Positions 11,887 through 52,422 of a stretch of 64,000 nt of DNA are shown here, piece after piece. The position numbers and the translations under genes were made by a program. The DNA is from an uncultured Gemmatimonadota bacterium (GTDB lineage Bacteria > JAAXHH01): positions 864,001-928,000 of the forward strand of contig OX638340.1 in the NCBI GenBank assembly GCA_951812955.1. The letters run 5' to 3'. The first letter of the stretch is position 1, and every line of letters begins with the position of its first letter. Under the pieces are notes generated by a model that saw only the letters and a program-made list of their open reading frames with translations, was not told where the DNA came from and made no database searches.

Positions 11887-12543
11887 TTGCCTGCCATGAC
11901 CGCAGCGGTTTCAAATTTCGCCGTGGATGTCGTTGACCGGTATGCGAAGGATCCCGGCAGGGTCGCCCTGCAATGGCAAAAAGCCGGCGCCGTGGCGACG
12001 GACGTCACCTTCCTGGATCTGAAAATACGTTCCGAAAAGGTCGCCCACGTGCTTCACCGTCACGGTGTGCGCCCGGGCCATCGGGTATTCATCCTGCTTC
12101 CTCCCTGCATGGCCTGGTGGGAGTCGATAGTTGGATGCATGCGGGCCGGCGCCGTGGCCGCGCTGGGGCAGGACGCATCCGATGCGCGGTTACTAAAGGA
12201 TCAGATCATTCAGTCCCGATCGACGCTCGTAATCGCGTCGGCCTCGCTTGCTGACCAGGTCGGCCGCATCATGGATGGCTGTACCGGGATCGCCCACTGG
12301 TTCTCCGTCGGCTGGGAGCGCGAGGGCTGGGTGGACTACGACCGCCGCGTCTCCCTCGCTCCGGCCGGGTTCAAGGCGGTTGAGACCCGGGAAACCGACC
12401 CCTGTATCGTCGTGTACGACCGGGGAACATCAGCCAGCGGAACAACACACCGGCACGGCGATGAAGGCTACGATCTGGAGCAGCTCGACGCGTGGCGCGA
12501 CGGGCTGGCCATCGCGGTGCACGACGCCTCCGAGCATCCATGA
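11887..12543 (+). CDS. AMP-binding (acyl-CoA synthetase-like) N-terminal domain only, with a degenerate P-loop; translationally coupled to the downstream CoA-transferase
   Basis: 218 aa resembling the first ~200 aa of adenylate-forming enzymes. The core TSGTTGxPKG motif is replaced by DRGTSASGTTHRHGD. The ORF ends in ATGA overlapping the next start. The C-terminal two-thirds of a normal ~500-aa synthetase is absent. Confidence 0.55.
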   Translation: MPAMTAAVSNFAVDVVDRYAKDPGRVALQWQKAGAVATDVTFLDLKIRSEKVAHVLHRHGVRPGHRVFILLPPCMAWWESIVGCMRAGAVAALGQDASDARLLKDQIIQSRSTLVIASASLADQVGRIMDGCTGIAHWFSVGWEREGWVDYDRRVSLAPAGFKAVETRETDPCIVVYDRGTSASGTTHRHGDEGYDLEQLDAWRDGLAIAVHDASEHP

Positions 12544-13700
12544 TACCCGCGCTGACCGACCACCTCGTCCTGGAGCTGACCACGCAGTTGCCGGGTCCCT
12601 ACTGCGCCATGCTGCTCGCAGATCTCGGCGCCAGTGTGATCAAGGTGGAGCCGCCCGGCGGAGATCCCCTGCGCCGTTTTCCCCCGGCTTTCGCCAGTGT
12701 CAACCGCGGCAAGCGGAATATCGTGATCGATTTAAAAAAGGAAGCGGGCGGGGAGGTCATGCGCCGCCTGGTCAGACGGGCGGACGTCGTGCTGGAGGGA
12801 TTCCGGCCTGGCGTGGCCGGACGGCTCGGCGTGGACTACCCCTCGGTAAAACACCTCAATCCCGCCATCGTGTATTGCTCCATTTCGGGGTTTGGCCAAG
12901 AAGGCCCCTACCGGAACCGCGCCGGTCATGACATCAACTATCTCGCGATCGGTGGTCTGCTGGGACGCGGCGATCCGCCCGCGGTCCCTCCCGTTCTGAT
13001 TTCGGACCTGTCCTCTGGCCTGTACGCCGCGCTGGCCGTTTCCGCCGCGCTGATGCACCGGACGGCCACGGGAGAGGGTCGCTTTATCGATCTGTCCATG
13101 ACCGACTGCATCCTGTCCTGGATGGCCCTGGATATCGCCACTGCCGCGCAGGAACCTAACGCGGCGCGACAGCAGTTTCTCGGAGATATCCCGCACTATG
13201 GTGTATTCGAGACTTCGGACGGCCGGCACATCAGCCTCGGGATCGTCCACGAGGATCATTTCTGGACCCGCCTCTGCGATGTCCTGGGACTGGAAGACTG
13301 GCGGGACTGGTCCTCGGGAAAACGGTTGAACAGGGCGGCCGCGATACAGGGAAAACTCCAGGCCGTTTTCGCCACGGATTCCTGCCACGAATGGGACCGA
13401 AGGCTGCGGGAAGCCGATGTGCCCTGTGCCCCCATTTACAACCTTGACGAGCTGACGGACGATCCTTATATACAGTACCGGAATCCGTTTTACAGTCTCG
13501 AAGCTTCCGATCAGTCGGCGAGCCGTCAGGTCAAAGCGCCATACCGAACAGATGCGCCGGAGGCCGAAGCACCGCTCCCGCCTCCTGTCCTGGGCGAAAA
13601 TACACGGCAGGTACTCTCGCAGTCCGGGTACGACGACGGTGAAATCGACCGCTTGATACAACAGGGTGCAGTACACGAATCCCATAACGGGGAGAAGTAA
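12540..13700 (+). CDS. Family III CoA-transferase (CaiB/BaiF/alpha-methylacyl-CoA racemase family)
   Basis: The N-terminus LELTTQLPGPYCAMLLADLGASVIKVEPPGGDP is characteristic of the family. About 386 aa. Confidence 0.85.
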   Translation: MIPALTDHLVLELTTQLPGPYCAMLLADLGASVIKVEPPGGDPLRRFPPAFASVNRGKRNIVIDLKKEAGGEVMRRLVRRADVVLEGFRPGVAGRLGVDYPSVKHLNPAIVYCSISGFGQEGPYRNRAGHDINYLAIGGLLGRGDPPAVPPVLISDLSSGLYAALAVSAALMHRTATGEGRFIDLSMTDCILSWMALDIATAAQEPNAARQQFLGDIPHYGVFETSDGRHISLGIVHEDHFWTRLCDVLGLEDWRDWSSGKRLNRAAAIQGKLQAVFATDSCHEWDRRLREADVPCAPIYNLDELTDDPYIQYRNPFYSLEASDQSASRQVKAPYRTDAPEAEAPLPPPVLGENTRQVLSQSGYDDGEIDRLIQQGAVHESHNGEK

Positions 13701-13721
13701 CCGAATCCTAAAGGAGATATC

Positions 13722-15455
13722 ATGAGCATCCGCGTGAGAAACTGGCGCGACCAGGCACCTTACGTCGGGCATATCAGCGCGTTGGTCTGGACGCTGTACC
13801 AGTCCCATGACAAAGACGAAACGTCTCCGCCGGACGTAAACCGGCTGCATGGGATCAACAGCTTCGTCAAGCACGGGCTGCAAGGCCACCAGCATTCGGA
13901 CCACCACAGTCACGACAGTATCGAGCAGTTGTACTTCATACTACGGGGGCGCGGCCAGCTCACCATCGGCGACGACAAGGTGGATGTCCGGGACGGTACG
14001 GCCGTCTACATGCCCGTAAACGTGCCTCACCAGGCCTTCAACGACGGAGATGGCTGGATGGAGCATCTTATCGTCAGTTGCCCGCTGGACGAAATCCGGG
14101 AGGGCACGTCCGCGGTCCGGGACTGGCGCGACGTCCATCCGGTGGTGCTGGGAGACGGGACCGTATCCTGGCCCCTGTTGCTGCGCGAAGAGGAGGCCCC
14201 GGCCGGCGAAGGCGGCGTTCTCCAACGCGTCCATAGCGTGACCCGCTACGCCGTCCAAGGACGCCGGGAGACCGACTGGCAAGAGCTGGACGGGATTGAG
14301 CTGGTCCACTACGTGATCAGCGGATATGGGACCATCGAAGAGCTGGACGATAACCAGCAGTTGGTCACGGAAGGCTCCGCGGTCCACGTACTTCCAGGCG
14401 AAGCACACAGATTCATAAACCAGGGCGAAGGATGGTTCGAATACGTCACGTTCGCGGTCGAAGTAGGAGAAATCGAGGTGCCGGATGAATCCGACCAGGA
14501 CGAGGACTCCGATGAAACGGCCGTGCAAGCCGGCGAGGCGGAAGCCGCCGCCGCTACGGTATTGACGGATGTCGATTGGGATGAAGCCGACGCTGTGGAA
14601 ACCGAAGAAGAAATCGAGGAATCGGTGACTTCCGACGCGACCGAAGAGGATGTGGACGAGGCCGAGGCTGCAGTCGAATTGGAAGATGACGACTCCGGCG
14701 AAATCGAAGCTGCAGCCGATGAAACTGACGAGGATGCGGGGGACGAGGATGCGGGGGACGAGGATGCAGGAGACGCGGAGGAAGATGACGACTCCGGCGA
14801 AATCGAAGCTGCAGCCGATGAAGCAGACGAGGATGCGGGGGACGAGGATGCAGGAGACGCGGAGGAAGATGACGCGGAGGAAGATGACGACTCCGGCGAA
14901 ATCGAAGCTGCAGCCGATGAAGCTGACTCGGTAGAAGATGATGATGCCGAAGAAGATTCTGACGCGGTAGATGACGATGACGCGGAAGTCCAGGATCTGA
15001 CCGATATCGGCGAGGATCAGGAAGAAGACGGTGACGTCGACGACGCTGGAGTCGCCGAAATAGACGATGACGCCGAAGTAGACGATGACGCGGAAGTCGA
15101 GGATCTGACCGATACCGGCGAGGATCAGGAAGACGCGGAAGACTACGATGACGCCGAAATAGGCGATGACGCGGTAGAAGACGATAACCTGGAAGAAGAT
15201 ACTGACCCGGACGACGATGACGCGGAAGTAAACGACCTGGCAGATACTGGCGAGGATCAGGAAGACGCGGAGAACGCCTCGATCGAAGCAGAGGAAGAAG
15301 ACGGGACAGACGATTCATCAGGGGACGAGGAAGAGGAAGATTTCGACCTGGAAGACGATGACGCGGAGTTCGATGTCGAAGCCGAAGATGAAACCGCCGT
15401 GGAGGACGAAGCGGGGGATGAGGACGAGGATTCCCCTGATGCGGACAGACGGTAA
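13722..15455 (+). CDS. Bicupin-domain protein with a ~330-aa polyacidic, internally repetitive C-terminal tail
   Basis: Two cupin-like segments sit in residues 1-250 (HQHSDHHSHDSIEQLYFILRGRG...; VHYVISGYGTIEEL...AHRFINQGEGWFEY). The tail is composed almost only of D/E/A/G with repeated DDDSGEIEAAADE(A/T)DEDAGDEDAGD and AEV(Q/E/N)DL(T/A)D(I/T)GEDQED modules. Confidence 0.65.
   Translation: MSIRVRNWRDQAPYVGHISALVWTLYQSHDKDETSPPDVNRLHGINSFVKHGLQGHQHSDHHSHDSIEQLYFILRGRGQLTIGDDKVDVRDGTAVYMPVNVPHQAFNDGDGWMEHLIVSCPLDEIREGTSAVRDWRDVHPVVLGDGTVSWPLLLREEEAPAGEGGVLQRVHSVTRYAVQGRRETDWQELDGIELVHYVISGYGTIEELDDNQQLVTEGSAVHVLPGEAHRFINQGEGWFEYVTFAVEVGEIEVPDESDQDEDSDETAVQAGEAEAAAATVLTDVDWDEADAVETEEEIEESVTSDATEEDVDEAEAAVELEDDDSGEIEAAADETDEDAGDEDAGDEDAGDAEEDDDSGEIEAAADEADEDAGDEDAGDAEEDDAEEDDDSGEIEAAADEADSVEDDDAEEDSDAVDDDDAEVQDLTDIGEDQEEDGDVDDAGVAEIDDDAEVDDDAEVEDLTDTGEDQEDAEDYDDAEIGDDAVEDDNLEEDTDPDDDDAEVNDLADTGEDQEDAENASIEAEEEDGTDDSSGDEEEEDFDLEDDDAEFDVEAEDETAVEDEAGDEDEDSPDADRR
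14682..15260. repeat. In-frame tandem DNA repeats (about 99-114-bp units x3, then further about 60-bp units) encoding the acidic tail
   Basis: Units beginning gaagatgacgactccggcgaaatcgaagctgcagccgatgaa sit at about 14682, 14780 and 14880. A second repeat type (gaagt..aggatctgaccgata..ggcgaggatcaggaaga) recurs at about 14985, 15095 and 15225. Confidence 0.7.
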
Positions 15456-15467
15456 ACGAAAGCGTAC

Positions 15468-16370
15468 GTGAACAACCTACCCGCCCGATCGTTCGGGCGA
15501 ACCGGCATGCGTCCGGCGGCATTGGCCATGGGAGCCGCCTTTCTGCACGAGAGCCCCGAGGCAGTCGAAGCCATCCAGACCGCCCTGTCGCTGGGCATCA
15601 ACTATTTCGATACCTATCCGGGCCACCACGAGGAAAAGTGGGGAGAGGCGCTCTCCGGCGTACCCCGTTCCTCCTACTACCTCCAGGCCAAGATCGGCAC
15701 CCATCCCGATCGAAAAAAGGATTTCTCGGGGGACGGCGCCAGGTGGAGCCTGGACCGCAGCCTGCGGGACCTTAAGACAGACTATCTCGACTCCGTTCTC
15801 GTACACGATCCGACCGATGTGGATGAATTGCTGCACGAAGGTGCGGTATTCGACGTGCTGCGCCAATTGAAAGCGCAGGGCGTGGTGAGGAACATCGGGC
15901 TCGGCGCCCGGTCCCATGACTGGCACGTCCGGCTGATCGACGAAGGCATTTGCGACGTCTCCCTGACCTTCCTGGACTACACCCTGGTCAACCAGTCTGC
16001 CGCCGCAACCATCTTTCCATCGGCCAGAAAGCACGAAACCGGAGTAATCCTGGCCAGTGTGCAGGGCATGGGACTGCTGACCGGATCGGAACCCGATCCC
16101 GAGCGGGAGCGGGGCATGCATCCCGGATCCGAGCCGAGGGCGCACGGGATCTGGACCTGGTGCCGTGAGCACGGCGTCAACATTCGTCACCTGGCCATCC
16201 AATTCTGTCTGGCTGCGCCGGTGGACAGCGTGGTCATGTTCGGCCCGGCTTCTATCCGGCACGTGTACGATGCTTACGAGGCCGCCACGGAAACCATTCC
16301 ACCCGATATGTGGGAGAAACTCGAGCACGACTTCGGCATCCGGCTCGGGATGAGTGACGGGCCGTCGTAA
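15468..16370 (+). CDS. Aldo/keto reductase family oxidoreductase
   Basis: 300 aa of the AKR fold with the motifs INYFDTY, LQAKIG and DSVLVHDP. The true start may be the internal Met at about 15510. Confidence 0.7.
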   Translation: MNNLPARSFGRTGMRPAALAMGAAFLHESPEAVEAIQTALSLGINYFDTYPGHHEEKWGEALSGVPRSSYYLQAKIGTHPDRKKDFSGDGARWSLDRSLRDLKTDYLDSVLVHDPTDVDELLHEGAVFDVLRQLKAQGVVRNIGLGARSHDWHVRLIDEGICDVSLTFLDYTLVNQSAAATIFPSARKHETGVILASVQGMGLLTGSEPDPERERGMHPGSEPRAHGIWTWCREHGVNIRHLAIQFCLAAPVDSVVMFGPASIRHVYDAYEAATETIPPDMWEKLEHDFGIRLGMSDGPS

Positions 16371-16432
16371 CTACTGCAGCGTTCTTCAATGGAAACCCGC
16401 TCATCATGAGGCAATCTCGACCTCGTCCATTC

Positions 16433-16520
16433 CTGACGCCAGCATCACACGGAACCCGGTCCGCATGTCCTCCAATCCTGGCGCCAGCATCTCACGGAAC
16501 CCTATCCCCATGTCCTCACT
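16433..16520. repeat. About 45-bp tandem duplication that duplicates the amidohydrolase start region (two ATGTCCTC starts)
   Basis: gacgccagcatcacacggaacccggtccgcATGTCCTCC and ggcgccagcatctcacggaaccctatccccATGTCCTCA are read directly. Confidence 0.65.
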
Positions 16521-17271
16521 GACCTTCTCGCCCCGCGTACCCGTCATCGACGCGAATGTATGCGTGGGCAATCACCATACCGGACCATCGCCCTGCCAAA
16601 GTCCCGCGCATCTACTCGGCGAAATGGATTTTCACGGCGTCCGGCGCGCCGTGATCTATCACGCCCAGGGAGAACAGATAAGTCCGACCGACGGCAACAT
16701 GCACCTGGAGGACTGGCTCGACGCGGATGAAAGGCTCATCCCTCAATGGTCGGTCGCCCCGGTGGAAACATCCATGCGGCAGATCGCCGAACTACACCGA
16801 CGGGGCCGGGTGAAATCCGCCCGCCTGCACGATTGCCAATCCGCCGGCCTTCCGTTTCTCCCATGGGGTTACGACGACCTGCTGTCCTTACTCTCGAGCG
16901 AGAGGATTCCGCTCTGGATCCCGTTGATGGACGTGGAAGCGGATCACCTGGTCACGACGCTGAAGGCTTATCCGGACCTGTGCACGGTGCTCATCGGTGC
17001 GCATTACACCCACGCGCTGGTCGTACGGGGGCTGCTGGAAGCAAATTCCAATACCATGCTGGAACTCAGCCGCTACGAACCCATCGGAGAAGTGGAGGCG
17101 CTCGTGGATCGTTTCGGTGCGGATCGATTCGTATACGGGTCCTGGTATCCAAGGTACGCCATGGGTCCAATCCTGTTCTATCTGCATCACACGCGCATCA
17201 GCGAGGATGATCTCGCCCGGATCTGCGCCGGAAACGTCGAGCGGCTGCTCGGACTCACGGAGGGGTCATGA
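16510..17271 (+). CDS. Amidohydrolase-2 family (PF04909-like TIM-barrel metal-dependent hydrolase/decarboxylase)
   Basis: VIDANVCVGNHH at the N-terminus, a YGSWYP motif near the C-terminus, and about 254 aa. Start chosen at the second MSS (16510); the duplicated upstream MSS (16465) is an alternative start. Confidence 0.65.
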   Translation: MSSLTFSPRVPVIDANVCVGNHHTGPSPCQSPAHLLGEMDFHGVRRAVIYHAQGEQISPTDGNMHLEDWLDADERLIPQWSVAPVETSMRQIAELHRRGRVKSARLHDCQSAGLPFLPWGYDDLLSLLSSERIPLWIPLMDVEADHLVTTLKAYPDLCTVLIGAHYTHALVVRGLLEANSNTMLELSRYEPIGEVEALVDRFGADRFVYGSWYPRYAMGPILFYLHHTRISEDDLARICAGNVERLLGLTEGS

Positions 17272-18017
17272 TAGACGGCACGAGGGTGATCGATTACCAC
17301 GGGCACGTGGGCAGATGGGAACGTTACGGCATGGTGGACGACCCGGAACTCATCCTGGGTGCCATGGATGCCGTCGGAATCGATATTGCGTGCCTGTTCC
17401 ACATATTCCATCCGGACGGCACGACGGGCAACGATCTGACCGCGCAATTCGTCGCCCGGAACCCGGACCGCTTCGTGGGCTTCGCATACGTTTCCCCTAC
17501 CATGCCCGACCGCATGGTGCCCGAACTGGAAAGGGCGATCGACAAGCTCGGGTTTCCGGCCATCAAGCTCTACCCGCCCTATACGCCCTGGCCCTTCAAC
17601 GAGGAACCATGGCATCCGATCTATGAATTCGCCCAGGACCGGGGCCTGGCCATCATCTTCCATACAGACCATTTCATCAACAGCCGTCCCCGTTACTTTG
17701 AAGACCTCGCGCCGGCCTACCCACGGGTGAATTTCGTTTCCGCGCACTGCGGCAACGTGCCTGAAGCACGCGCGGAAGCCATCGCCGCCGCGCAGAAATT
17801 CCCGAATGTCTACCTGGAGACCTGTTCGACCTACCGGACGCCCGGCGTGATCGAAGAACTGGTGGAAAAGGGCGGAGCCGACCGCGTGCTGTACGGATCG
17901 GACATGCCCCTGATGGATCCAAGGCCGCAGATCGGAAAGATCATCACTGCCCGGATCTCAAACGAGGCGAAACGCATGGCGCTGGGTGAGAACGCGGCCC
18001 GGCTGCTGGGCATATAG
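17268..18017 (+). CDS. Amidohydrolase-2 family protein (paralog of the upstream gene)
   Basis: VIDYHGHVG, HTDH and YGSDMP motifs. ATGA overlap with the upstream paralog. Confidence 0.75.
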   Translation: MIDGTRVIDYHGHVGRWERYGMVDDPELILGAMDAVGIDIACLFHIFHPDGTTGNDLTAQFVARNPDRFVGFAYVSPTMPDRMVPELERAIDKLGFPAIKLYPPYTPWPFNEEPWHPIYEFAQDRGLAIIFHTDHFINSRPRYFEDLAPAYPRVNFVSAHCGNVPEARAEAIAAAQKFPNVYLETCSTYRTPGVIEELVEKGGADRVLYGSDMPLMDPRPQIGKIITARISNEAKRMALGENAARLLGI

Positions 18018-30751: not shown

Positions 30752-32053
30752 TCAGACTCCGACCCGGTCAGTGTCGAAAGTCTCCAGGTTGCGCGTGATG
30801 TCCCGGATGAACCGGGCGGCGTTGAGACCGTCGATGAAGCGGTGGTCGAAGGACAGGCTCAGAAACATCATGGAACGGATGGCCAGGGAGTCATCCGCCT
30901 GCACGACAACCTGCTTCTTGACGCTCCCCGTGGCGAGGATGCCCGCCTCGGGCTGGTTGATGATCGGCGTGCCAAAAAGGGTGTCCCACATGCCCGGGTT
31001 CGTCAGAGTGAACGTACTGCCCTTCAGGTCGTCAGGAGACAACTTGCGGTCATGGGCACGCTTGGCCAGGTCGTGAGCCGCCTGGGCAATCTCCGAGAAA
31101 TCCATCTCGTCCGCGTGGCGGATTACCGGCACCACGACCCCCTTTTCCAGGCCCACCGCCAGCCCCAGGTTTACGTGCTTCCACTGGAGGACCCGGTCGT
31201 CGTCCATGGTGGCGTTCAGCATGGGGTTGGCGCGTAACGCGTCGACGATGGCGGTGATGAAGAAGGGGGTCAGCGTCAGCTTGATGCCGGTTTTCTGTTG
31301 GAACCGTTCCCTGGCCTCTTCGCGGTACCGGACGACGTGCGTCATGTCGACTTCCGAGACGGAGGTCACGTGGGGGGACACCTGCTTGCTGAGGACCATG
31401 TGCTTTGCGATGGTCTTGCGCAGGGTGTCCATATTCACGACGCGGGCTTCTTCGGTGCCTGCCGGCCGGGATACAGAAACGAACTCGGAATCCTCGTCCT
31501 GCTCCGCCGCCGGTTCAGGAATCCGGGACGCGCGCCGTTCCAGGTAGGTAAGCAGATCGTCCCGGGTTACCCGGCCACCCTTGCCGGTTCCTTCCAGGGA
31601 TTCCAGCATAGCCATGTCGATGCGTTCTTCCCGGGCGATGCGCAATACGAGGGGAGAGTAGAACCGTTCGGCCCGCCTTCGCCTCAGCGGCCCCCCGTCA
31701 ACGGCCTCCGCGGCCGGCGTCAATTCATCCGCATCGATCGTCTCCGGCGCTTCCCCGGCACCGTCCGGCTGCTCCTCCGAATCGGCCGCGCTGGAATCGA
31801 CGTCTTCTTCGTCCCCCGTGTCGATGACGCCGATGATTTCTCCAATGGCCACCGTCGTCCCTTCGTCCACGCGAATCTCGCTCAACACGCCGCCCGCGAT
31901 GGCGGGTATGTCCGTGTCGATCTTGTCGGTGGTGATCTCAACCACGGACTCGTCGCGCTCGATCGGATCGCCCACCTTCTTCAACCAGCGGATGACCGTT
32001 CCTTCCTCGACGCTTTCGCCCAGTCTCGGCATGGTGATGTTCACGTTGCACAT
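30752..32053 (-). CDS. 2-oxoacid dehydrogenase E2 (dihydrolipoyl acyltransferase; BCKDH/PDH/acetoin-type)
   Basis: Lipoyl domain (MPRLGESVEEGTV...TDKIDT), an acidic linker, a peripheral-subunit-binding domain, and the DHRFIDG catalytic motif. Confidence 0.85.
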   Translation of the reverse strand: MCNVNITMPRLGESVEEGTVIRWLKKVGDPIERDESVVEITTDKIDTDIPAIAGGVLSEIRVDEGTTVAIGEIIGVIDTGDEEDVDSSAADSEEQPDGAGEAPETIDADELTPAAEAVDGGPLRRRRAERFYSPLVLRIAREERIDMAMLESLEGTGKGGRVTRDDLLTYLERRASRIPEPAAEQDEDSEFVSVSRPAGTEEARVVNMDTLRKTIAKHMVLSKQVSPHVTSVSEVDMTHVVRYREEARERFQQKTGIKLTLTPFFITAIVDALRANPMLNATMDDDRVLQWKHVNLGLAVGLEKGVVVPVIRHADEMDFSEIAQAAHDLAKRAHDRKLSPDDLKGSTFTLTNPGMWDTLFGTPIINQPEAGILATGSVKKQVVVQADDSLAIRSMMFLSLSFDHRFIDGLNAARFIRDITRNLETFDTDRVGV

Positions 32054-42198: not shown

Positions 42199-45100
42199 AT
42201 GACATCTGAACGTTCCATCCTGCAATCCTGCCTGCGCAGCGTCCTTCGCCGCTGGCGTCTCATGTTTGTCTTCCGAGGCGTCTCGGTGCTCGCGATCGCC
42301 GGAGTGATGCTATTCATTTGCGGCGTGGCGGCCCTGCATTTGTTTGACCCCGGAGTATTCGCCCGCATCCTGTTCCTGGCCGGCGCCACGGGAGCCCTCG
42401 GTTGGCTCGCATACCGGTTCCTGCTCGTTCCGCTTCGCCGAACGCCTACGGACCTGCAGGTCGCCCGTTACATCGAAGAACGGCATCCCGCCTTGAACGA
42501 CGCCTTAGTCAGCGCCGTGGAATACGGCCATGGTCATCTTCGAAGACCGCAGAAGGTCCTCATGGACCAACTTATGGCGCACGTCGCCGACTACACCGAG
42601 CAGATCGACTTCAAAAAGATCGTAGACCGGAAGCGCTACTTTACCCTCCAGGCGGCCGCTGTCGGAGCCGCCCTCGTCCTTGCCGGCCTTGTCTTCCTGG
42701 AACCCGGGTTTTTCGGCCGTTCCGCCCTTCGCCTGGTGTCGTGGACCCATGCGGAACCGGCCGTTCCCGGAGGCATCAGGGTAGAGCCCGGCGACACGCG
42801 GGTCAGGCGAGGGGAAAGCCTGGACGTTACCGCCGTACTGGGCAGCGGTCTGACCCCGGACCCGAACCTGTTCGTCCGATTCGGAAATGACGAAAACTGG
42901 TCGACGCTGGATCTATACGAGACGGATGGCGAACGGACCTTCTCGAACCGCATCCACGGCATCAGCGAGGACGCCCTGTATTACGTCGCCGTGACCGGAA
43001 CCCGGTCGAAAGAATTCCACATTGCAGCGATCGATCCGCCCTATGTCGAACGGATCGACGCCCGGTATGTCTTCCCGGCATACACGGAGCTGGCCGCGAA
43101 GGTCGAGGAAGACCGCGGGGACATTACGGCGCCGGTGGACACGCGGGTCGCCCTGCGCATCACTGCGAGCAAGGCGGTGCGTTCCGCCGAGATGCGCTTC
43201 AGCAACGGTCGCGCGTTGGAACTCGCGGTTACCGGGTCAGACCTCGAGGGATCATTCGTCGTGCGAGAGGATCTCTCCTATTCCATACACCTGGTGGACT
43301 CGGACGACTTCGCAAATGACGACCCGGTGGAATACTACGTCCGGGCGCTGCAGGACCGGGCGCCCCGGGTGACCATCCTCGAACCGAAGCGGGATACACG
43401 GGTATCCCCTGTCGATGAGGTGACCATTCGCGCCGAGGCCGTGGATGATTTCGGCCTATCGACCTTCTCTCTCAATTACGCGGTGAACGGCGGCGAGGAA
43501 GTCCTGGTGGACCTGGGTGCGCTGCAGGACGAATCGAGCGGCACGGTCTGGGAAGGGGAACATGTGGTCTACCTGGAGAATCTTTCGGTCCAGCCGGGCG
43601 ATTTCGTCGCCTATTACGCGGAGGCGGGTGATCGCCGGAGCGAGGGCGGCACGTCCGCGACGGACATTTACTTTATCGAAATCACGCCTTTCGATGCGTC
43701 CTACCGGCAGGGCGAGGGCGGAAGCGGTGGCGGAGGAGGAGGTGCCGGGAACGACGTGATGCAGACGAGACAGCTTTCTCGCAAGCAGAAGGAGATCATC
43801 TCGGCCACGTGGCGCGTAAAGAGAACGCTCGCGTCAGTCCCCGGGACGGAGGTAGCGGAAGACCTCGAAGCGATCGCCGAGGTCCAGGACGCACTTAGGA
43901 GCCAGGCGGATGAAGCGCTCGCGTTCATGCGGTTCACGGTCGGGATTTCGAGCGAGTCCATGGAAATGGTCGAAATGCTGGAGCTGGCGCTGGAACCGAT
44001 GTCGGCCGCCTCCGAAGCACTGCGGTCCGGTTCGGTCGACGATGCCCTGGTCCACGAGCGTTTAGCGCTTATGTACCTCACGAGGCTCGATGCGCTGATG
44101 CGGGATTTTACTGTGAACAGGGCACGCGGCATGGCGGGCAGGGCTCCGCTGGACTTCTCCGACACCTCCGAACTCGAGCTGGAGGATGAAAGGAACAGGT
44201 ACGAGGTACCCGATCAGCCGGCCCTGGATCGCCAGAGGGAGCGGAGCATCGAAGAGCACCATCAACGTGTCCAGGACCTGGCCCGGCGCCAACAACAACT
44301 GAATAACCAGCTCCGGGAGCTGACGGAGGTGGAAGATCGCCAGGAAGCCGAACGCCGCAGGGAATTGGACCGCCTGACCAGGACGCAGCGTGAGCTCAGG
44401 GAAGAGACGGAGGAAATCGCGCGATCGCTCTCCGGGAACCGGACCGATCCGGCCAATCGGGACCCGCGATCGGGCTCCCCCGGTCCCATGCTGGAGCAAG
44501 CGAACCAGGATCTGCGTGACAGTTCCGAGTCGATGGGCGAAACGATCGAGCAACTGCGCAGGAACCAGCTGCGGCCAGCAGCGGAAGACGGCGCTCAGAC
44601 CGCACAGCATCTGGCCGACGCGTCCAGACAACTGAAGCGTGCGCAGGGGGAGTCGCTGGAGCGGCTGGCGAGGGAAGCGGCTAGACAGGCGGATCAGCTG
44701 GCTGTCCGGCAGGAACAACTCGAACGGAACGTCAACGCGTTGAAAGAGGAGAAGGATAACGGCTTCGAGGGCATCATCAACCGTTTGGACGCGATCGAAT
44801 CGCGGCGCGGCGGCCTGGACCTGGAGTCGGATACGCGGCGCCTGGACCGGTTTGTGCGCGAACGGTTGAGGGGGGTCGAAGCGGCAAAGGACGAAATCCG
44901 TTCCGATCTCGAACGGCTAGAGAGCGACCTGGACCACCTCGCCCGGAGTTCGTCCCGTGCGCAGGCCGGGACGGCGGCAGCCGCGGATCGGGCCAGCGAG
45001 ATGATCGATGACGAGCGGTTGAAAGAACAGATCGAGCAATCGAAGCGCCTTTTGAGACGGGACACCCTGGACCAGTCCGCCCTCAGGGAGTCGGAAATCT

Positions 45101-45624
45101 CCGAAGCAATGGACCGGCTGGCGGAACAGGTCCGTACCGCGCGGGACAAGCTGATTACCCGGGACATGGATCATCTGTCCCGTACGCAGGAAAGCGCTCG
45201 GGATGCCATGTCCGAATGGCAGAACCTCCAACGGCAGCTATTCAGATTGAACCGCGGCATTCCCAATTCCGAGACCCTGGACCAGATTTCCCGGGATTAC
45301 CAGCGTCAGTTGCAGCGTCTGCGGGATCTTTCGGGTCAGGTTCCGCAGATGTCCGGAGAAACGCGGCAGTTGCAGAACGACCTGGACCGAGCGCTCGCCC
45401 TCGGCAATGAACCGTGGAAGATCGACCGGGGCCAATGGAACGAACTCCATCTCAACCTGGCCCGCAGTCTCGGTGATTTCTACGACGGGCTGCGCGCGGA
45501 GGTACGGGATATGCGCCGCAAGGAGCGTCTCTACCTGGCCAGGGAAGAGGATGTACCCCCGGGATACAGGGACCTCGTGAATGACTATTTCGAGAAGCTC
45601 TCAAAAAACGGGGACAGCAACTGA
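42199..45624 (+). CDS. Large (1141 aa) membrane-anchored protein, DUF4175-like: 2 TM, a beta-rich region, a Gly-rich hinge and a ~600-aa charged coiled coil
   Basis: TM helices at residues about 20-75. Gly run GEGGSGGGGGGAGND at about 43711-43752. The C-terminal half is dominated by R/E/Q/L/D heptad-like sequence. It is the last gene of the MoxR-DUF58-vWA module. Confidence 0.5.
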   Translation: MTSERSILQSCLRSVLRRWRLMFVFRGVSVLAIAGVMLFICGVAALHLFDPGVFARILFLAGATGALGWLAYRFLLVPLRRTPTDLQVARYIEERHPALNDALVSAVEYGHGHLRRPQKVLMDQLMAHVADYTEQIDFKKIVDRKRYFTLQAAAVGAALVLAGLVFLEPGFFGRSALRLVSWTHAEPAVPGGIRVEPGDTRVRRGESLDVTAVLGSGLTPDPNLFVRFGNDENWSTLDLYETDGERTFSNRIHGISEDALYYVAVTGTRSKEFHIAAIDPPYVERIDARYVFPAYTELAAKVEEDRGDITAPVDTRVALRITASKAVRSAEMRFSNGRALELAVTGSDLEGSFVVREDLSYSIHLVDSDDFANDDPVEYYVRALQDRAPRVTILEPKRDTRVSPVDEVTIRAEAVDDFGLSTFSLNYAVNGGEEVLVDLGALQDESSGTVWEGEHVVYLENLSVQPGDFVAYYAEAGDRRSEGGTSATDIYFIEITPFDASYRQGEGGSGGGGGGAGNDVMQTRQLSRKQKEIISATWRVKRTLASVPGTEVAEDLEAIAEVQDALRSQADEALAFMRFTVGISSESMEMVEMLELALEPMSAASEALRSGSVDDALVHERLALMYLTRLDALMRDFTVNRARGMAGRAPLDFSDTSELELEDERNRYEVPDQPALDRQRERSIEEHHQRVQDLARRQQQLNNQLRELTEVEDRQEAERRRELDRLTRTQRELREETEEIARSLSGNRTDPANRDPRSGSPGPMLEQANQDLRDSSESMGETIEQLRRNQLRPAAEDGAQTAQHLADASRQLKRAQGESLERLAREAARQADQLAVRQEQLERNVNALKEEKDNGFEGIINRLDAIESRRGGLDLESDTRRLDRFVRERLRGVEAAKDEIRSDLERLESDLDHLARSSSRAQAGTAAAADRASEMIDDERLKEQIEQSKRLLRRDTLDQSALRESEISEAMDRLAEQVRTARDKLITRDMDHLSRTQESARDAMSEWQNLQRQLFRLNRGIPNSETLDQISRDYQRQLQRLRDLSGQVPQMSGETRQLQNDLDRALALGNEPWKIDRGQWNELHLNLARSLGDFYDGLRAEVRDMRRKERLYLAREEDVPPGYRDLVNDYFEKLSKNGDSN

Positions 45625-50086: not shown

Positions 50087-50434
50087 ATGCCCGTCAACGA
50101 GATGATCCATACCATGCTGGAGGAATTGCGGCAGATCGCCGACACGGAGGTTCACGTGGGCAAACCCCTACATATCGGGGATTCCTATGTGGTTCCGGTT
50201 TCCAGGCTGTCCCTGGGGTTCGGTGCCGGGGGGTTTGGCGGCGAGGCCGATCAGAAGAGGGGGGCGGGGGGCGGTGTATCGGTCGAACCGGTCGCGTTTC
50301 TGGTCATCCAACAGGATCGCGCGCAACTGCTGCATATGAATTCGCCCAGCAGTCCCATGGGCAAGCTGCTGGATATCATGCCGGACGTCATCGAGGAACT
50401 GAAGAAGTATACCAGAAAAGACGGCGATCAGTAG
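50087..50434 (+). CDS. YtfJ/GerW-family (sporulation-protein-YtfJ-like) protein
   Basis: 115 aa. VVPVSRLSLGFGAGGFGGE...GGGVSVEPVAFLVI matches the glycine-rich GerW/YtfJ signature. Confidence 0.6.
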   Translation: MPVNEMIHTMLEELRQIADTEVHVGKPLHIGDSYVVPVSRLSLGFGAGGFGGEADQKRGAGGGVSVEPVAFLVIQQDRAQLLHMNSPSSPMGKLLDIMPDVIEELKKYTRKDGDQ

Positions 50435-52422
50435 ACCAGAGGCGCTACGGTCTTCGAAATCAGCGCGACGGCTACCGTGGCCATGCCGACCAATCCCGTG
50501 CCACAGGCATATCCGGCCGCGAGCACGGGCGTGTACCGCATCCATCTTTGCCTGCCGAACTTCCTTTCCATGTAGAACCTGCCCAGCAGTGCGCCGAAAA
50601 ACTGGGGAATGAAGGCGTGGGGCACCGTTCCCACGCTGGCGATCATACCGAAAATAAGCATGACAGGTAGATTGAAGGCTGCCAGGACGGCGTAGGCCAA
50701 TACGCCGAAAGCTGCGCCGCCTATCATGTAGGGGATTTTCAGCGCTTCGATCAGGTAGCTGGACTCGAATCCCGACCCGGCCGTGCTGGAATACCACAGC
50801 GCCTGCATCGTGGCCTGCTGCTGCCAGAACTTCTGCGCGTAGGGATAGGCCTGAGACGGAATAGGCGCGAGCCCCCAGACGAAGTGCCAGAACAGGAGAC
50901 TGCAGACCAGCAAAACGGGGATCATGACCAGCTCGGCCTTCAGCACGCTCGTGAACCGTGTTCCGGTGAGCTCGACTTCTCTAAAGGCCTGGGCCTGCCC
51001 CCCGTAGTTGAAAATCGGAATGGGCGCGAACCAGATGTCCACCCCCTTGTAGCCGCTGAGGATAAACGTGGCTTCCTTAATGAGGGGGAACTGCAGGTCG
51101 GCGCCCGTGATCGCGCGCAGGCGGGCGCTCGCGTACGAACTGATTGGCGTGTAAACGAACCCGTAGAACACGAAAAAGAGGATGGGGAACCCGGGCACCA
51201 GGCGCCAGCTCAGTACGACGTACCCAACTGTCAGAAGCAGAAAAGCGCCTAGAATCAGGGAGAAGGGAAAATCCCCCCTGCCGGTCGGCGTGGCGTTCCC
51301 GCTTGCAGATCCGCCCTTCGACTCTTCGCGCCCTTTTCCGCTCTTCCTTTTCCTGAGCCCGGCCAAAATGCTCCACCCGCCGATCAGCGCGACGGCTAAG
51401 CCCGTGCCGATGCGTACGCTCATCCAGAAATCGATATCGTTGACCAGCGTGGTCTGGATGGCGTCCATGCCCGGCGACCACGTACGCAGTATATTCAGAT
51501 CGTAGAGCAGCGGGTTGAGGACCACGGTAAGCAAAGCCCCGATGGCGGAACCGACCACGATCCAGAATGGCAGGACAAACCCCGTCAGCACTGGTCCCAG
51601 TCCCAGCTCGACCGCCATGGCCGCGGCCGGCAGAATGTTCTCGGTATTGCGCGTCAGGTCTGCAAAGGGAATGGGAATCAGTGTGATCGGTTCGGCCAGC
51701 AGCGCGCCCGTGACTGCCGGTATGCCGATATAGAACGCCCCGAATACGAGTCCCAGCATGGCCCCGATGCTGAATGCGCGCCAGCGCCATGATTCCTGTC
51801 CCGCCGAACTCTCCGCCAGGGCCGTGGCGCCTTCCGCCTGGATAGGAGCCAGGGGAAAGGGAAGGCGTTCCACGTCGGCCGTAACGCGGAATAATCCGTA
51901 ACCCAGCGTAAAGGCGCTCGCCCGGTTGAAGATGTGGAGCACGGCGACGAGCAGTATCGGCACGAGCCATTCCCCGTGCAGCAGCGTGCGGAGCACGATG
52001 GCTTCGGAGTCTCCACCGGGAGAGATCCACGAGGGAATCTGTTCGTCGATGCCGAAAGCCCGGGCTCCGGGGGACTGGACGAAGTACTGGTACCAGATCA
52101 GCTGGGCAAAGGGGCCCCCTGAAAGGGCCAGGCCCACGCCGGCGGTGAGGCTGGCCGCCACGTAGTACAGCATGTAAATTTCCTGGCGGCTGAGCTTGGT
52201 GAAGGACCGGCGCGCGACCTCGATAAACAGGATGATCGTGGTCCACTCCGCCGCGGGCCCCAGGCTCTGTCCGGCGATCAGGTTCAGGTAGATCGAACCG
52301 GGGATCATGAACAGCCCGAGAAAGACGATCCCAATGACCGTCTTTACGTTGAATCCTTCCTCGTAGACCTGGGGATGGTCGGAAAAGGCGGAGGTTGGCA
52401 GGTCGTCCTTAACTAGGGTCAT
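50428..52422 (-). CDS. Polytopic membrane transporter, OPT (oligopeptide transporter) family-like
   Basis: 664 aa with at least 14 hydrophobic segments. The N-terminal pattern (TVIGIVFLGLFMIPGSIYLNLIAGQSLGPAAEWTTIILF) resembles bacterial OPT proteins. Overlaps the ytfJ-like stop by 7 bp. Confidence 0.45.
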   Translation of the reverse strand: MTLVKDDLPTSAFSDHPQVYEEGFNVKTVIGIVFLGLFMIPGSIYLNLIAGQSLGPAAEWTTIILFIEVARRSFTKLSRQEIYMLYYVAASLTAGVGLALSGGPFAQLIWYQYFVQSPGARAFGIDEQIPSWISPGGDSEAIVLRTLLHGEWLVPILLVAVLHIFNRASAFTLGYGLFRVTADVERLPFPLAPIQAEGATALAESSAGQESWRWRAFSIGAMLGLVFGAFYIGIPAVTGALLAEPITLIPIPFADLTRNTENILPAAAMAVELGLGPVLTGFVLPFWIVVGSAIGALLTVVLNPLLYDLNILRTWSPGMDAIQTTLVNDIDFWMSVRIGTGLAVALIGGWSILAGLRKRKSGKGREESKGGSASGNATPTGRGDFPFSLILGAFLLLTVGYVVLSWRLVPGFPILFFVFYGFVYTPISSYASARLRAITGADLQFPLIKEATFILSGYKGVDIWFAPIPIFNYGGQAQAFREVELTGTRFTSVLKAELVMIPVLLVCSLLFWHFVWGLAPIPSQAYPYAQKFWQQQATMQALWYSSTAGSGFESSYLIEALKIPYMIGGAAFGVLAYAVLAAFNLPVMLIFGMIASVGTVPHAFIPQFFGALLGRFYMERKFGRQRWMRYTPVLAAGYACGTGLVGMATVAVALISKTVAPLVY

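Follow-up and report, generated by a model that had tools for sequence, protein, structure and literature searches.

Organization of the locus

The window analysed here is a stretch of 64,000 nucleotides (nt) from an uncultured Gemmatimonadota bacterium (contig OX638340.1, positions 864,001 to 928,000; coordinates below count from the first letter of the window). It contains a gene for a protein of 577 amino acids (aa) in which a bicupin core is followed by a polyacidic tail made of modular repeats, an architecture proposed earlier from the letters alone (the sequence-only reading) and on which the open reading frame (ORF), Pfam, AlphaFold2 and the amino acid composition now agree. A locus scan with one genome per species gave 27 loci (L001-L027), and a metagenome scan added L028. 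All 21 of the loci L001-L021 carry the tail, on the same gene in the same operon. Our analysis shows that this tail is not a uniform low-complexity sequence but consists of three layers: a proximal motif, a middle prone to turnover and an acidic-aromatic distal motif. Both motifs had escaped the sequence-only reading. The features of the gene are as follows (pLDDT, predicted local distance difference test score):

13710..13716, + strand: Shine-Dalgarno sequence AAAGGAG, 6 nt 5' of the bicupin ATG, read in the sequence
13722..15455, + strand: bicupin gene, 577 aa, ORF confirmed as described before
13722..14096, + strand: cupin barrel 1, residues 1-125, with a canonical metal site (best Pfam Cupin_2 stretch 55-116; AlphaFold2 strands 3-121, pLDDT ~90)
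13905..14030, + strand: codons for H62, H64, E68 and H103, putative ligands of the metal, in the HQHSDHHSH loop region (conservation in alignments)
14112..14462, + strand: cupin barrel 2, residues 131-247, without HxH (second Cupin_2 stretch; AlphaFold2 strands 131-247)
14463..14546, + strand: acidic linker leaving the barrel (EVGEIEVPDESDQDEDSDETAVQAGEAE; tail alignment, pLDDT <50 from residue 252)
14547..14621, + strand: conserved proximal tail motif AAATVLTDVDWDEADAVETEEEIEE, residues 276-300 (19 of 21 tail-bearing loci)
14622..15338, + strand: hypervariable polyacidic middle with in-frame repeats (Tandem Repeats Finder, repeat search, block insertions and deletions against L001, L002 and L028)
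15339..15452, + strand: conserved distal tail motif DFDLEDDDAEFDVEAEDETAVEDEAGDEDEDSPDADRR, residues 540-577 (C-terminal, in frame, 18 of 21 loci)

Three layers in the tail

Residues 251-577 are made of 30% D, 24% E, 16% A, 6% V and 5.5% G. They hold 177 D and E (54%) against two K and R (the terminal RR). The strongly negative charge noted before is real, although at -175 the computed net value somewhat exceeds the earlier estimate of about -150. No Pfam family matches the tail, even at E <= 10. In the AlphaFold2 model of the full-length protein, almost all of residues 252-577 have a pLDDT <50 and are essentially without secondary structure, both motifs included, while the core stays confident; the whole tail is predicted from this model to be disordered.

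The proximal motif (consensus AAAVVAEVDWDDADAVETEEEIEE, short form AEVDWDDADAVETEEEIEE) occurs in 19 of the 21 loci that bear the tail; L011 has two copies of it. The distal motif follows the pattern DFDLEDDDADFDIEDEDET..SPDxDRR, with the consensus DDFDLEDDDADFDIEDEDETxVEDETGExDDxSPDxDRR. Between them, the middle cannot be aligned across species, yet its composition is constant (~53% D+E, almost free of K, R, N and H), and each lineage amplifies its own units, such as DGDEDDEDGEEAE, DDVDDVDD or AAVEEEDEVEEAA. A variable linker leading to a conserved terminal peptide under purifying selection, the arrangement of SSB and FtsZ, is found here.

The tail is a feature of this gene and not of the proteome. 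It is the sole acidic stretch of its kind in the 64-kb window and in 377 kb of related loci (~440 kb in total). A halophile-like hyperacidic proteome was considered and rejected, since the neighbours are only ordinarily acidic and no second acidic tail occurs in the ~440 kb. The second most acidic stretch of the window, with 16 D/E in 40 aa, lies inside a 2-oxoacid dehydrogenase E2 (30752-32053, - strand) with Biotin_lipoyl, E3_binding and catalytic domains, and appears to be an ordinary inter-domain linker unrelated to the tail. Opposite the tail, an antisense ORF of 322 aa (14554-15522, - strand) is rich in R, P, L and H; we dismissed it as a gene, as it is a shadow of the GAN-codon repeats.

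Repeats and copy-number turnover

The repeats of the window tail are far above chance. Tandem Repeats Finder reports a 99-bp period with 2.5 copies and 93% match at 14681-14927; a repeat search finds three units of 99 nt at 14634-14930 and a 108-nt family at 14916-15263, and sub-repeats have periods of 15, 18 and 30 nt. Every one of these periods (15, 18, 30, 99, 108) is a multiple of three. The two repeat types that the sequence-only reading had counted three times each are indeed both present in three copies (DDDSGEIEAAADE and AEVxDLxDxGEDQE), but the full DEDAGDEDAGD extension follows only two copies of the former.

Copy numbers were expected to vary, and they do so between close lineages. 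Compared with its nearest relatives L001 and L002, whose cores are 96% identical, the window tail differs mainly by insertions and deletions (indels) of whole repeat units: DDDSGEIEAAADE occurs three times in the window, twice in L002 and in L028 and once in L001, while AEVxDLxDTGEDQE occurs three times in the window, once in L001 and seven times in L028. The L028 allele (JGIcombinedJ30088_10044388, 413-2320, a JGI metagenome) encodes 635 aa with seven copies of AEVNDLTDTGEDQEEDD and has ambiguous bases within the repeats, which suggests either heterogeneity within the sample or a problem in building the repeat consensus.

Several other sequences show local irregularities. In L008 (OZ245326.1, 9290-10130, a chromosome-level metagenome-assembled genome, MAG), the tail contains an in-frame TGA and a 13-codon out-of-frame patch, past which the frame resumes for ~250 codons with ~9 perfect copies of DGDEDDEDGEEAE and the conserved motif at its end. 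Either the gene has recently acquired a truncating mutation, or the consensus is locally wrong. In P0001 (an ENA contig; 392 aa), the annotated protein shifts frame where the tail begins and continues in a K/R-rich alternative frame of the GAN repeats, so that such genes can be mis-annotated as basic proteins. The tail of L021 holds a run of N. These local faults (P0001, L021, L028 and L008) call for caution on exact copy numbers and leave the existence of the tail unaffected.

Distribution and origin of the tail

In the complete ORFs of L001-L021, the tail is 196-413 aa long, with 41-62% D+E (at least 50% except in L009) and at most four K+R; its net charge ranges across species from about -120 to -220. 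These loci belong to MAGs labelled Latescibacterota, 'Gemmatimonadetes' or 'bacterium', many of them 3.5-3.9-Mb 'chromosome: 1' records. Several originate from sponges or corals according to their record titles (APA_, IRC1_, SB0665, Plut_). PacBio HiFi assemblies of sponge holobionts have been described (PMC12648040), and the 'chromosome: 1' record format matches them; we infer the link from this format.

Five more distant loci (L023-L027) lack the tail, although L023 and L025 share the upstream operon genes. More generally, distant homologues of the core turned out to be tail-less or short-tailed, as the comparison suggested along with the sequence-only reading had left to be seen. Tail length rises with identity to the window core:

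core identity 48-60% (Zixibacteria, groundwater and marine Latescibacteria, Gemmatimonadota MAGs): total 242-254 aa, tail 0-9 aa
core identity ~56%: total 294 aa, tail ~50 aa
core identity 67-68%: total 311-390 aa, tail ~70-145 aa
core identity 85-90% (to 96% in the closest): total up to 537 aa, long tail of 196-413 aa

This stepwise increase suggests that the tail arose gradually. At ~68% core identity, P0010-P0018 and L022 have a shorter acidic tail with its own unit, EEQESxVDEDIDLDVVEDGNDQIDDDEEDEQVVENED, in one or two copies. A D[IF]DL[DE]-like element is common to the tail of this clade and to the distal motif of the long-tail clade. Judging from its sequence, the tail of the ~68% clade would be an independent expansion. 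Altogether, the tail is a lineage-specific C-terminal extension, 200-460 residues long in a clade of Latescibacterota-type bacteria associated with sponges and corals, that has been produced and remodelled by in-frame repeat turnover and kept at 196 aa or more in all species sampled.

Selection on the tail

Ratios of nonsynonymous to synonymous differences (pN/pS) were computed as Nei-Gojobori proportions averaged across all sequence pairs:

core: pN/pS 0.13, pS 0.41
proximal motif (17 sequences): pN/pS 0.19, pS 0.47
DFDL..DFDI core of the distal motif: pN/pS 0.27, pS 0.37
last 12 tail codons: pN/pS 0.59, pS 0.28

Both motifs are thus under purifying selection at the protein level: their pN/pS is low while their synonymous divergence resembles that of the core, which argues that they are not kept through identity of the DNA.

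The charge of the tail may be selected as well. Pooled over 5343 residues, the tails contain 28% E, 25% D, 16% A, 8% V, 6% G, 0.22% K, 0.6% N and 0.1% H. Among the products of first-position G-to-A changes, the ratios K/E and N/D are 0.008 and 0.024, against 0.23 for T/A and 0.25 for (I+M)/V. Charge-removing products are therefore 10-30 times rarer than charge-neutral ones, which argues for selection on charge density, in a test that treats related and internally repeated sequences as independent. Runs of at least seven D/E are also depleted, with 7 observed against ~29 in composition-matched shuffles, and the longest run is at most six in 15 of 19 tails. Consecutive acidic residues destabilize the translating ribosome of E. 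coli, where ten D/E in a row lead to stochastic abortion, an effect countered by Mg2+ and by the nascent chain that precedes them, and bacteria have fewer long D/E runs than eukaryotes do (PMC9718836). In the light of this ribosome effect, the tails look tuned for translation to their end, and the depletion suggests selection for translatability through to the end motif.

Operon context and coupling to the reductase gene

The bicupin gene lies within a conserved catabolic operon that runs from a nucleoside hydrolase to two amidohydrolases. The same-strand cluster comprises, in order, argininosuccinate synthase, M14 peptidase, nucleoside hydrolase, SDR, an acyl-CoA-synthetase fragment, CoA-transferase and the bicupin, and continues 3' with an aldo-keto reductase, two Amidohydro_2 proteins, a GDSL esterase and a GFO/IDH/MocA oxidoreductase. 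Beyond it are an AAA-domain gene on the opposite strand, an amino-acid permease and a thiamine pyrophosphate (TPP) enzyme. Apart from small gaps in a few loci, the clade shares this gene order. A role of the operon in inositol or purine catabolism is possible but unsupported. The neighbouring features are:

12492..13700, + strand: family III CoA-transferase, upstream neighbour (Pfam E 1.7e-98; syntenic in all tail-bearing loci and in tail-less L025)
15444..15490, + strand: junction of the last tail codons, TAA, a 12-nt spacer and the GTG of the aldo-keto reductase (comparison of 19 species)
15468..18017, + strand: aldo-keto reductase and two Amidohydro_2 genes, downstream and translationally coupled (Pfam; ORF overlaps of 17 nt and 4 nt)

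The reductase and amidohydrolases are syntenic in those tail-bearing loci whose sequence extends that far; they were not detected in L009, and only the reductase was found in L017.

The Shine-Dalgarno sequence AAAGGAG of the bicupin gene is invariant in the 19 related loci compared; none can be read for the reductase at the junction. The terminal RR codons do not serve as one, being AGA CGG and not AGGAGG and lying too far upstream. The junction itself, GACAGACGG TAA ACGAAAGCGTAC GTG AACAACCTACCCGCCCG, is almost invariant at the nucleotide level in 19 species, against a synonymous divergence of ~0.4 elsewhere. From this pattern, it is probably a conserved reinitiation or coupling element, which the sequence-only reading had missed, and with the start codon only 12 nt from the stop and no Shine-Dalgarno sequence, the reductase is likely to be translated by ribosomes that have just completed the tail.

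Upstream, a 218-aa ORF (11887-12543, + strand) corresponds to no more than the N-terminal third of an acyl-CoA synthetase of the AMP-binding type (Pfam positions 6-169 of 384) and overlaps the start of the CoA-transferase gene by ~50 nt. As a short stand-alone ORF, it occupies this position in 19 of the 21 loci with a tail (the region is missing from the other two sequences) and in tail-less L023 and L025. A truncated adenylation domain retained beside a CoA-transferase is unusual. Elsewhere in the window, two large ORFs have no Pfam match, one of 1141 aa (42199-45624, + strand), which follows a MoxR ATPase - DUF58 - BatA/VWA cluster, and one of 664 aa (50428-52422, - strand).

The bicupin core

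Pfam finds two Cupin_2 stretches within residues 1-250 (E 2.3e-19), and in an AlphaFold2 model built with an 18-sequence alignment, residues 1-247 form two beta-barrels with a mean pLDDT of 90.9, that is, two consecutive double-stranded beta-helix barrels in one chain. With Foldseek, the core matches solved bicupins of the PDB at template modelling (TM) scores of 0.70-0.79 and an identity of only 10-16%; the matches include DR1152 (1sfn), EF2996 (1sef), Arabidopsis (S)-ureidoglycine aminohydrolase (4e2q), YlbA (1rc6), BacB, pirin and oxalate decarboxylase. The bicupin fold is certain, and the core adds a new member to this family. A sequence search of the PDB with the core gave only generic cupin matches (E of at least 1e-4). 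The assignment to (S)-ureidoglycine aminohydrolase (TIGR03214, ura-cupin) was rejected, as the core scores 21 bits (E 1.9e-4) against an equivalog cut-off of 200; the resemblance to 4e2q is one of fold only. The family is narrow: a search of 1.84 billion representatives gave just 17 clusters (50% identity) that score below 1e-30.

Cupin motifs were judged by the patterns G(x)5HxH(x)3-4E(x)6G (motif 1) and G(x)5PxG(x)2H(x)3N (motif 2). HxH(x)3E and G(x)5PxN(x)2H(x)3N can be read in barrel 1, where H62-x-H64-(x)3-E68 and G92(x)5P98xN(x)2H103(x)3N107 are conserved; barrel 2, without an HxH, does not conform to them. H62, H64, E68 and H103 are all invariant in an 18-sequence alignment (A1), and in a 27-sequence alignment (A3) H103 is invariant and the other three are at least 90% conserved. 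Barrel 2 shows no conserved His pair or HxH in the 18- and 27-sequence family alignments and, to judge from this, probably does not bind metal. The proposal of His-rich metal sites in two barrels is thus retained for the first barrel and dropped for the second. The protein as a whole is probably a metal-dependent bicupin enzyme of the cytoplasmic type.

Searches for export signals and partners

By inspection, there is no N-terminal signal peptide for Sec or Tat: the N-terminus (MSIRVRNWRDQAPYVGH) is polar, residues 3-7 form a barrel strand, and tail-less homologues have conserved the same N-terminal sequence. RTX substrates are recognized by GGxGxDxUx nonapeptide repeats and adjacent genes for an ABC transporter, a membrane fusion protein and TolC; the tail has no RTX match at Pfam E <= 10, and no type I secretion genes occur among the window genes scanned. 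Nor does the tail, predicted to be fully disordered, match EF-hand or calsequestrin-type families at Pfam E <= 10. Among the same window genes, none near the bicupin encodes a secretion system or a transporter of such kind. Secretion of the protein is unlikely, and with it the idea of a secretion tag raised in the sequence-only reading, the more so as the gene belongs to a catabolic operon.

No strongly basic protein is encoded next to the bicupin gene, the operon proteins having isoelectric points of 4.8-6.1, and the core offers no compensating basic surface. Its net charge is -21 in the window; in tail-bearing species, cores have net charges of -12 to -19 and are no more basic than those of tail-less relatives, which makes electrostatic fold-back of the tail implausible. 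We found no description of this protein in the literature on bacterial polyacidic tails.

Possible functions of the tail

We propose that the middle of the tail is a spacer or brush and that the conserved motifs are putative interaction sites for a partner, a reading which carries the plan of the SSB and FtsZ tails to an extreme of charge and length and to which we give a probability of roughly 0.4. The middle would behave as a self-repelling polyelectrolyte, which could not fold back on a core that is itself acidic. It would keep the enzyme soluble and hold the conserved end motif tens of nanometres out, and this motif, perhaps together with the proximal one, would bind a partner, probably a basic one. 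In its favour are the architecture and predicted disorder of the tail, its retention at 196 aa or more in 21 species-level genomes when the orthologues in the equivalent operon position of L023 and L025 have none, its gradual origin, the protein-level selection on both motifs, the signs of selection on charge and on translatability, the acidity of the core and the restriction of the feature to one gene. Several observations weigh against this proposal. No partner for the motifs has been found. In the AlphaFold2 model of the full-length monomer, neither motif is structured or touches or docks on the core. The proximal motif is absent from L009 and L017, and the L008 assembly has a stop codon in the tail. 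The composition-based tests carry the assumption of independence mentioned above, and conservation of the extreme end (DRR) may stem from the RNA-level junction rather than from the protein, because the last 12 codons combine a pS of 0.28 with a pN/pS of 0.59. Profiles of the distal (A2) and proximal (A5) motifs gave no match at E <= 10 among 5.8 billion proteins, and known family members were not recovered either: with thousands of word candidates, these 44-aa acidic profiles were defeated by compositional bias and database size. Metagenome scans with the motifs returned nothing for the distal one and, for the proximal one, only the same gene in L028.

The polyanion itself could instead be the function, as a high-capacity, low-affinity sink for cations (Mg2+, Ca2+, polyamines or the metal of the cupin) or as a solubilizing entropic bristle, with the motifs as remnants of an ancestral short tail. 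The middle does conserve composition and not sequence, excluding K, R and N almost totally; a net charge of -175 needs neutralization by counter-ions; and the tail is attached to a putative metal-dependent active site. The valency of the counter-ions strongly affects disordered proteins rich in acidic residues, coral AGARP for example (PMC12557392). This explanation leaves the pN/pS of 0.19-0.27 on two specific motifs unaccounted for, and no EF-hand, RTX or other Ca-binding family matches the tail even at E <= 10. Free Ca2+ is low in the cytoplasm, and it would be odd for a general buffer to sit on one gene only in ~440 kb. We regard it as unlikely. A similarly low likelihood attaches to a tolerated runaway expansion, in which a short acidic extension that already had the functional motifs grew by slippage or unequal recombination in host-associated lineages under weak selection, its length having no function and only sticky or untranslatable variants being removed. 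Such a history would fit a tail length that varies without pattern from 196 to at least 413 aa, the whole-unit indels between relatives with 96% identical cores, the unrelated units amplified in different lineages, the independent expansion at ~68% identity, the proneness of GNN-codon repeats to slippage and the stop codon in L008. It fits less well with the fact that none of the 21 species falls below 196 aa, though deletions are evidently frequent, that 18 of 21 keep the frame as far as the distal motif, and that long D/E runs are depleted, an indication that translation over the full length matters; moreover, 330 extra D/E-rich codons are costly and risky for the ribosome to translate (PMC9718836).

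The remaining explanations appear weaker. The D/E-rich frame could be a translation device, a Mg2+- or charge-sensitive zone of ribosome drop-off that sets reinitiation on the reductase and amidohydrolase genes, which lack a Shine-Dalgarno sequence. The invariant stop-12 nt-GTG junction and the overlaps of the later genes agree with this, as does the intrinsic destabilization of ribosomes by D/E-rich nascent chains, relieved by Mg2+, which is established in E. coli, a member of another phylum (PMC9718836). Yet runs of seven or more D/E are depleted and not enriched, so that the sequence looks drop-off-avoiding, D/E sequences in the middle of an ORF are usually shielded by the preceding nascent chain (PMC9718836), and a device of this kind would not need conserved peptide motifs; we consider it very improbable. 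Even less credit can be given to a polyanion exported to the sponge or coral host through a C-terminal signal, be it a nucleic-acid mimic, a histone-chaperone-like mimic or a mineral-interacting protein. The long-tail clade does come from sponge- and coral-associated MAGs by record titles, the conserved C-terminal motif could in principle act as a signal, and acidic disordered regions with aromatics bind histones in eukaryotic chaperones (PMC10987829). Against export stand the N-terminus, which lacks a signal peptide, forms a barrel strand at residues 3-7 and is conserved in tail-less relatives; the absence of RTX repeats and of secretion-system genes in the window; the position of the gene amid a translationally coupled catabolic operon shared with free-living relatives; and the shorter acidic tails already present in planktonic relatives. 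Export thus seems highly improbable. That the repeats were collapsed or expanded in assembly, or read in a wrong frame, was the refutation envisaged at the outset. Local faults in repeats do occur (the P0001 frameshift, the N run of L021, the ambiguous bases of L028 and the short out-of-frame patch of L008), but the tail is seen again, with its C-terminal motif in frame, in 18-21 independent assemblies, chromosome-level MAGs among them, the architecture with the distal motif in frame being the same in 18 of them (3.5-3.9-Mb records included), and all repeat periods are multiples of three; an artefact has a negligible chance, with the copy number in the window taken as assembled.

If the proposal of a spacer with interaction motifs is extended further, the DFDLEDDDADFDIEDEDET... 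end motif on its polyanionic tether might be a new bacterial recognition or assembly signal, recruiting the enzyme to a basic partner or to a polycation-dependent assembly or condensate (a metabolon with the operon neighbours), specifically in host-associated Latescibacterota. We hold this extension to be doubtful; if true, the tail would be among the few natural extreme polyelectrolyte disordered regions with a defined role in bacteria. Long disordered regions rich in D/E, which are scarce in bacteria, are a common feature of nuclear and secretory proteins of eukaryotes. The gene described here provides a bacterial example from nature that lies at the far end of the charge scale and has long been kept in a defined animal-associated clade. 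It offers a tractable system for asking what extreme polyanionic tails do in the bacterial cytoplasm, how they are translated and how repeat turnover coexists with selection on composition. Should the end motif have a partner, it would represent a new interaction module; if it has none, the tail would be a clean example of selection on bulk physicochemical properties. The tail has no direct bearing on a long-standing open question.

Comparison with known systems

The tail belongs to none of the families tested, and its likeness to known systems is one of principle only. The core resembles the small bicupins YlbA, DR1152 and (S)-ureidoglycine aminohydrolase as well as BacB, pirin and oxalate decarboxylase in its two-barrel fold, in a site of the 3-His/1-Glu type in one barrel and in its size of ~245 aa, but bicupins of the YlbA type share only 10-16% identity with it. 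To our knowledge, none of these proteins has a long acidic tail. The plant 11S/7S seed-storage bicupins, also among the Foldseek matches, have the same bicupin scaffold and carry hypervariable, D/E-rich, disordered and repeat-prone regions. They are eukaryotic storage proteins, however, that lack catalytic metal sites and have far shorter acidic regions, and the likeness probably arose by convergence.

Among acidic proteins that bind Ca2+ with high capacity, the C-terminal tails of calsequestrin and calreticulin and acid-rich coral proteins such as AGARP (PMC12557392) are comparable in D/E content and disorder, and counter-ion condensation dominates their behaviour. Those proteins are extracellular or belong to the secretory pathway, whereas the bicupin has no export signal and is encoded in a catabolic operon. 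The delta subunit of Bacillus RNA polymerase has a polyanionic C-terminal domain, and the eukaryotic histone chaperones Npm2, Nap1 and nucleoplasmin have acidic disordered regions. In these cases too, a folded domain bears a D/E-rich disordered tail that presents a nucleic-acid-like polyanion to basic partners, but the tails are much shorter (tens to ~100 residues) and are found on nucleic-acid-related proteins; nothing in the gene context or in our analyses links the bicupin to nucleic-acid metabolism.

SSB has a linker and the acidic tip DFDDDIPF, and FtsZ a C-terminal linker and a conserved peptide. The linker in the window has 3-10 times the length of theirs and is extremely polyanionic, the motif is set back by ~25 residues from the carboxy-terminus instead of forming it, and the folded part is a metabolic enzyme. 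What the bicupin has in common with both is the succession of a folded domain, a hypervariable linker and a short conserved terminal motif, and the tip of SSB is likewise acidic-aromatic.

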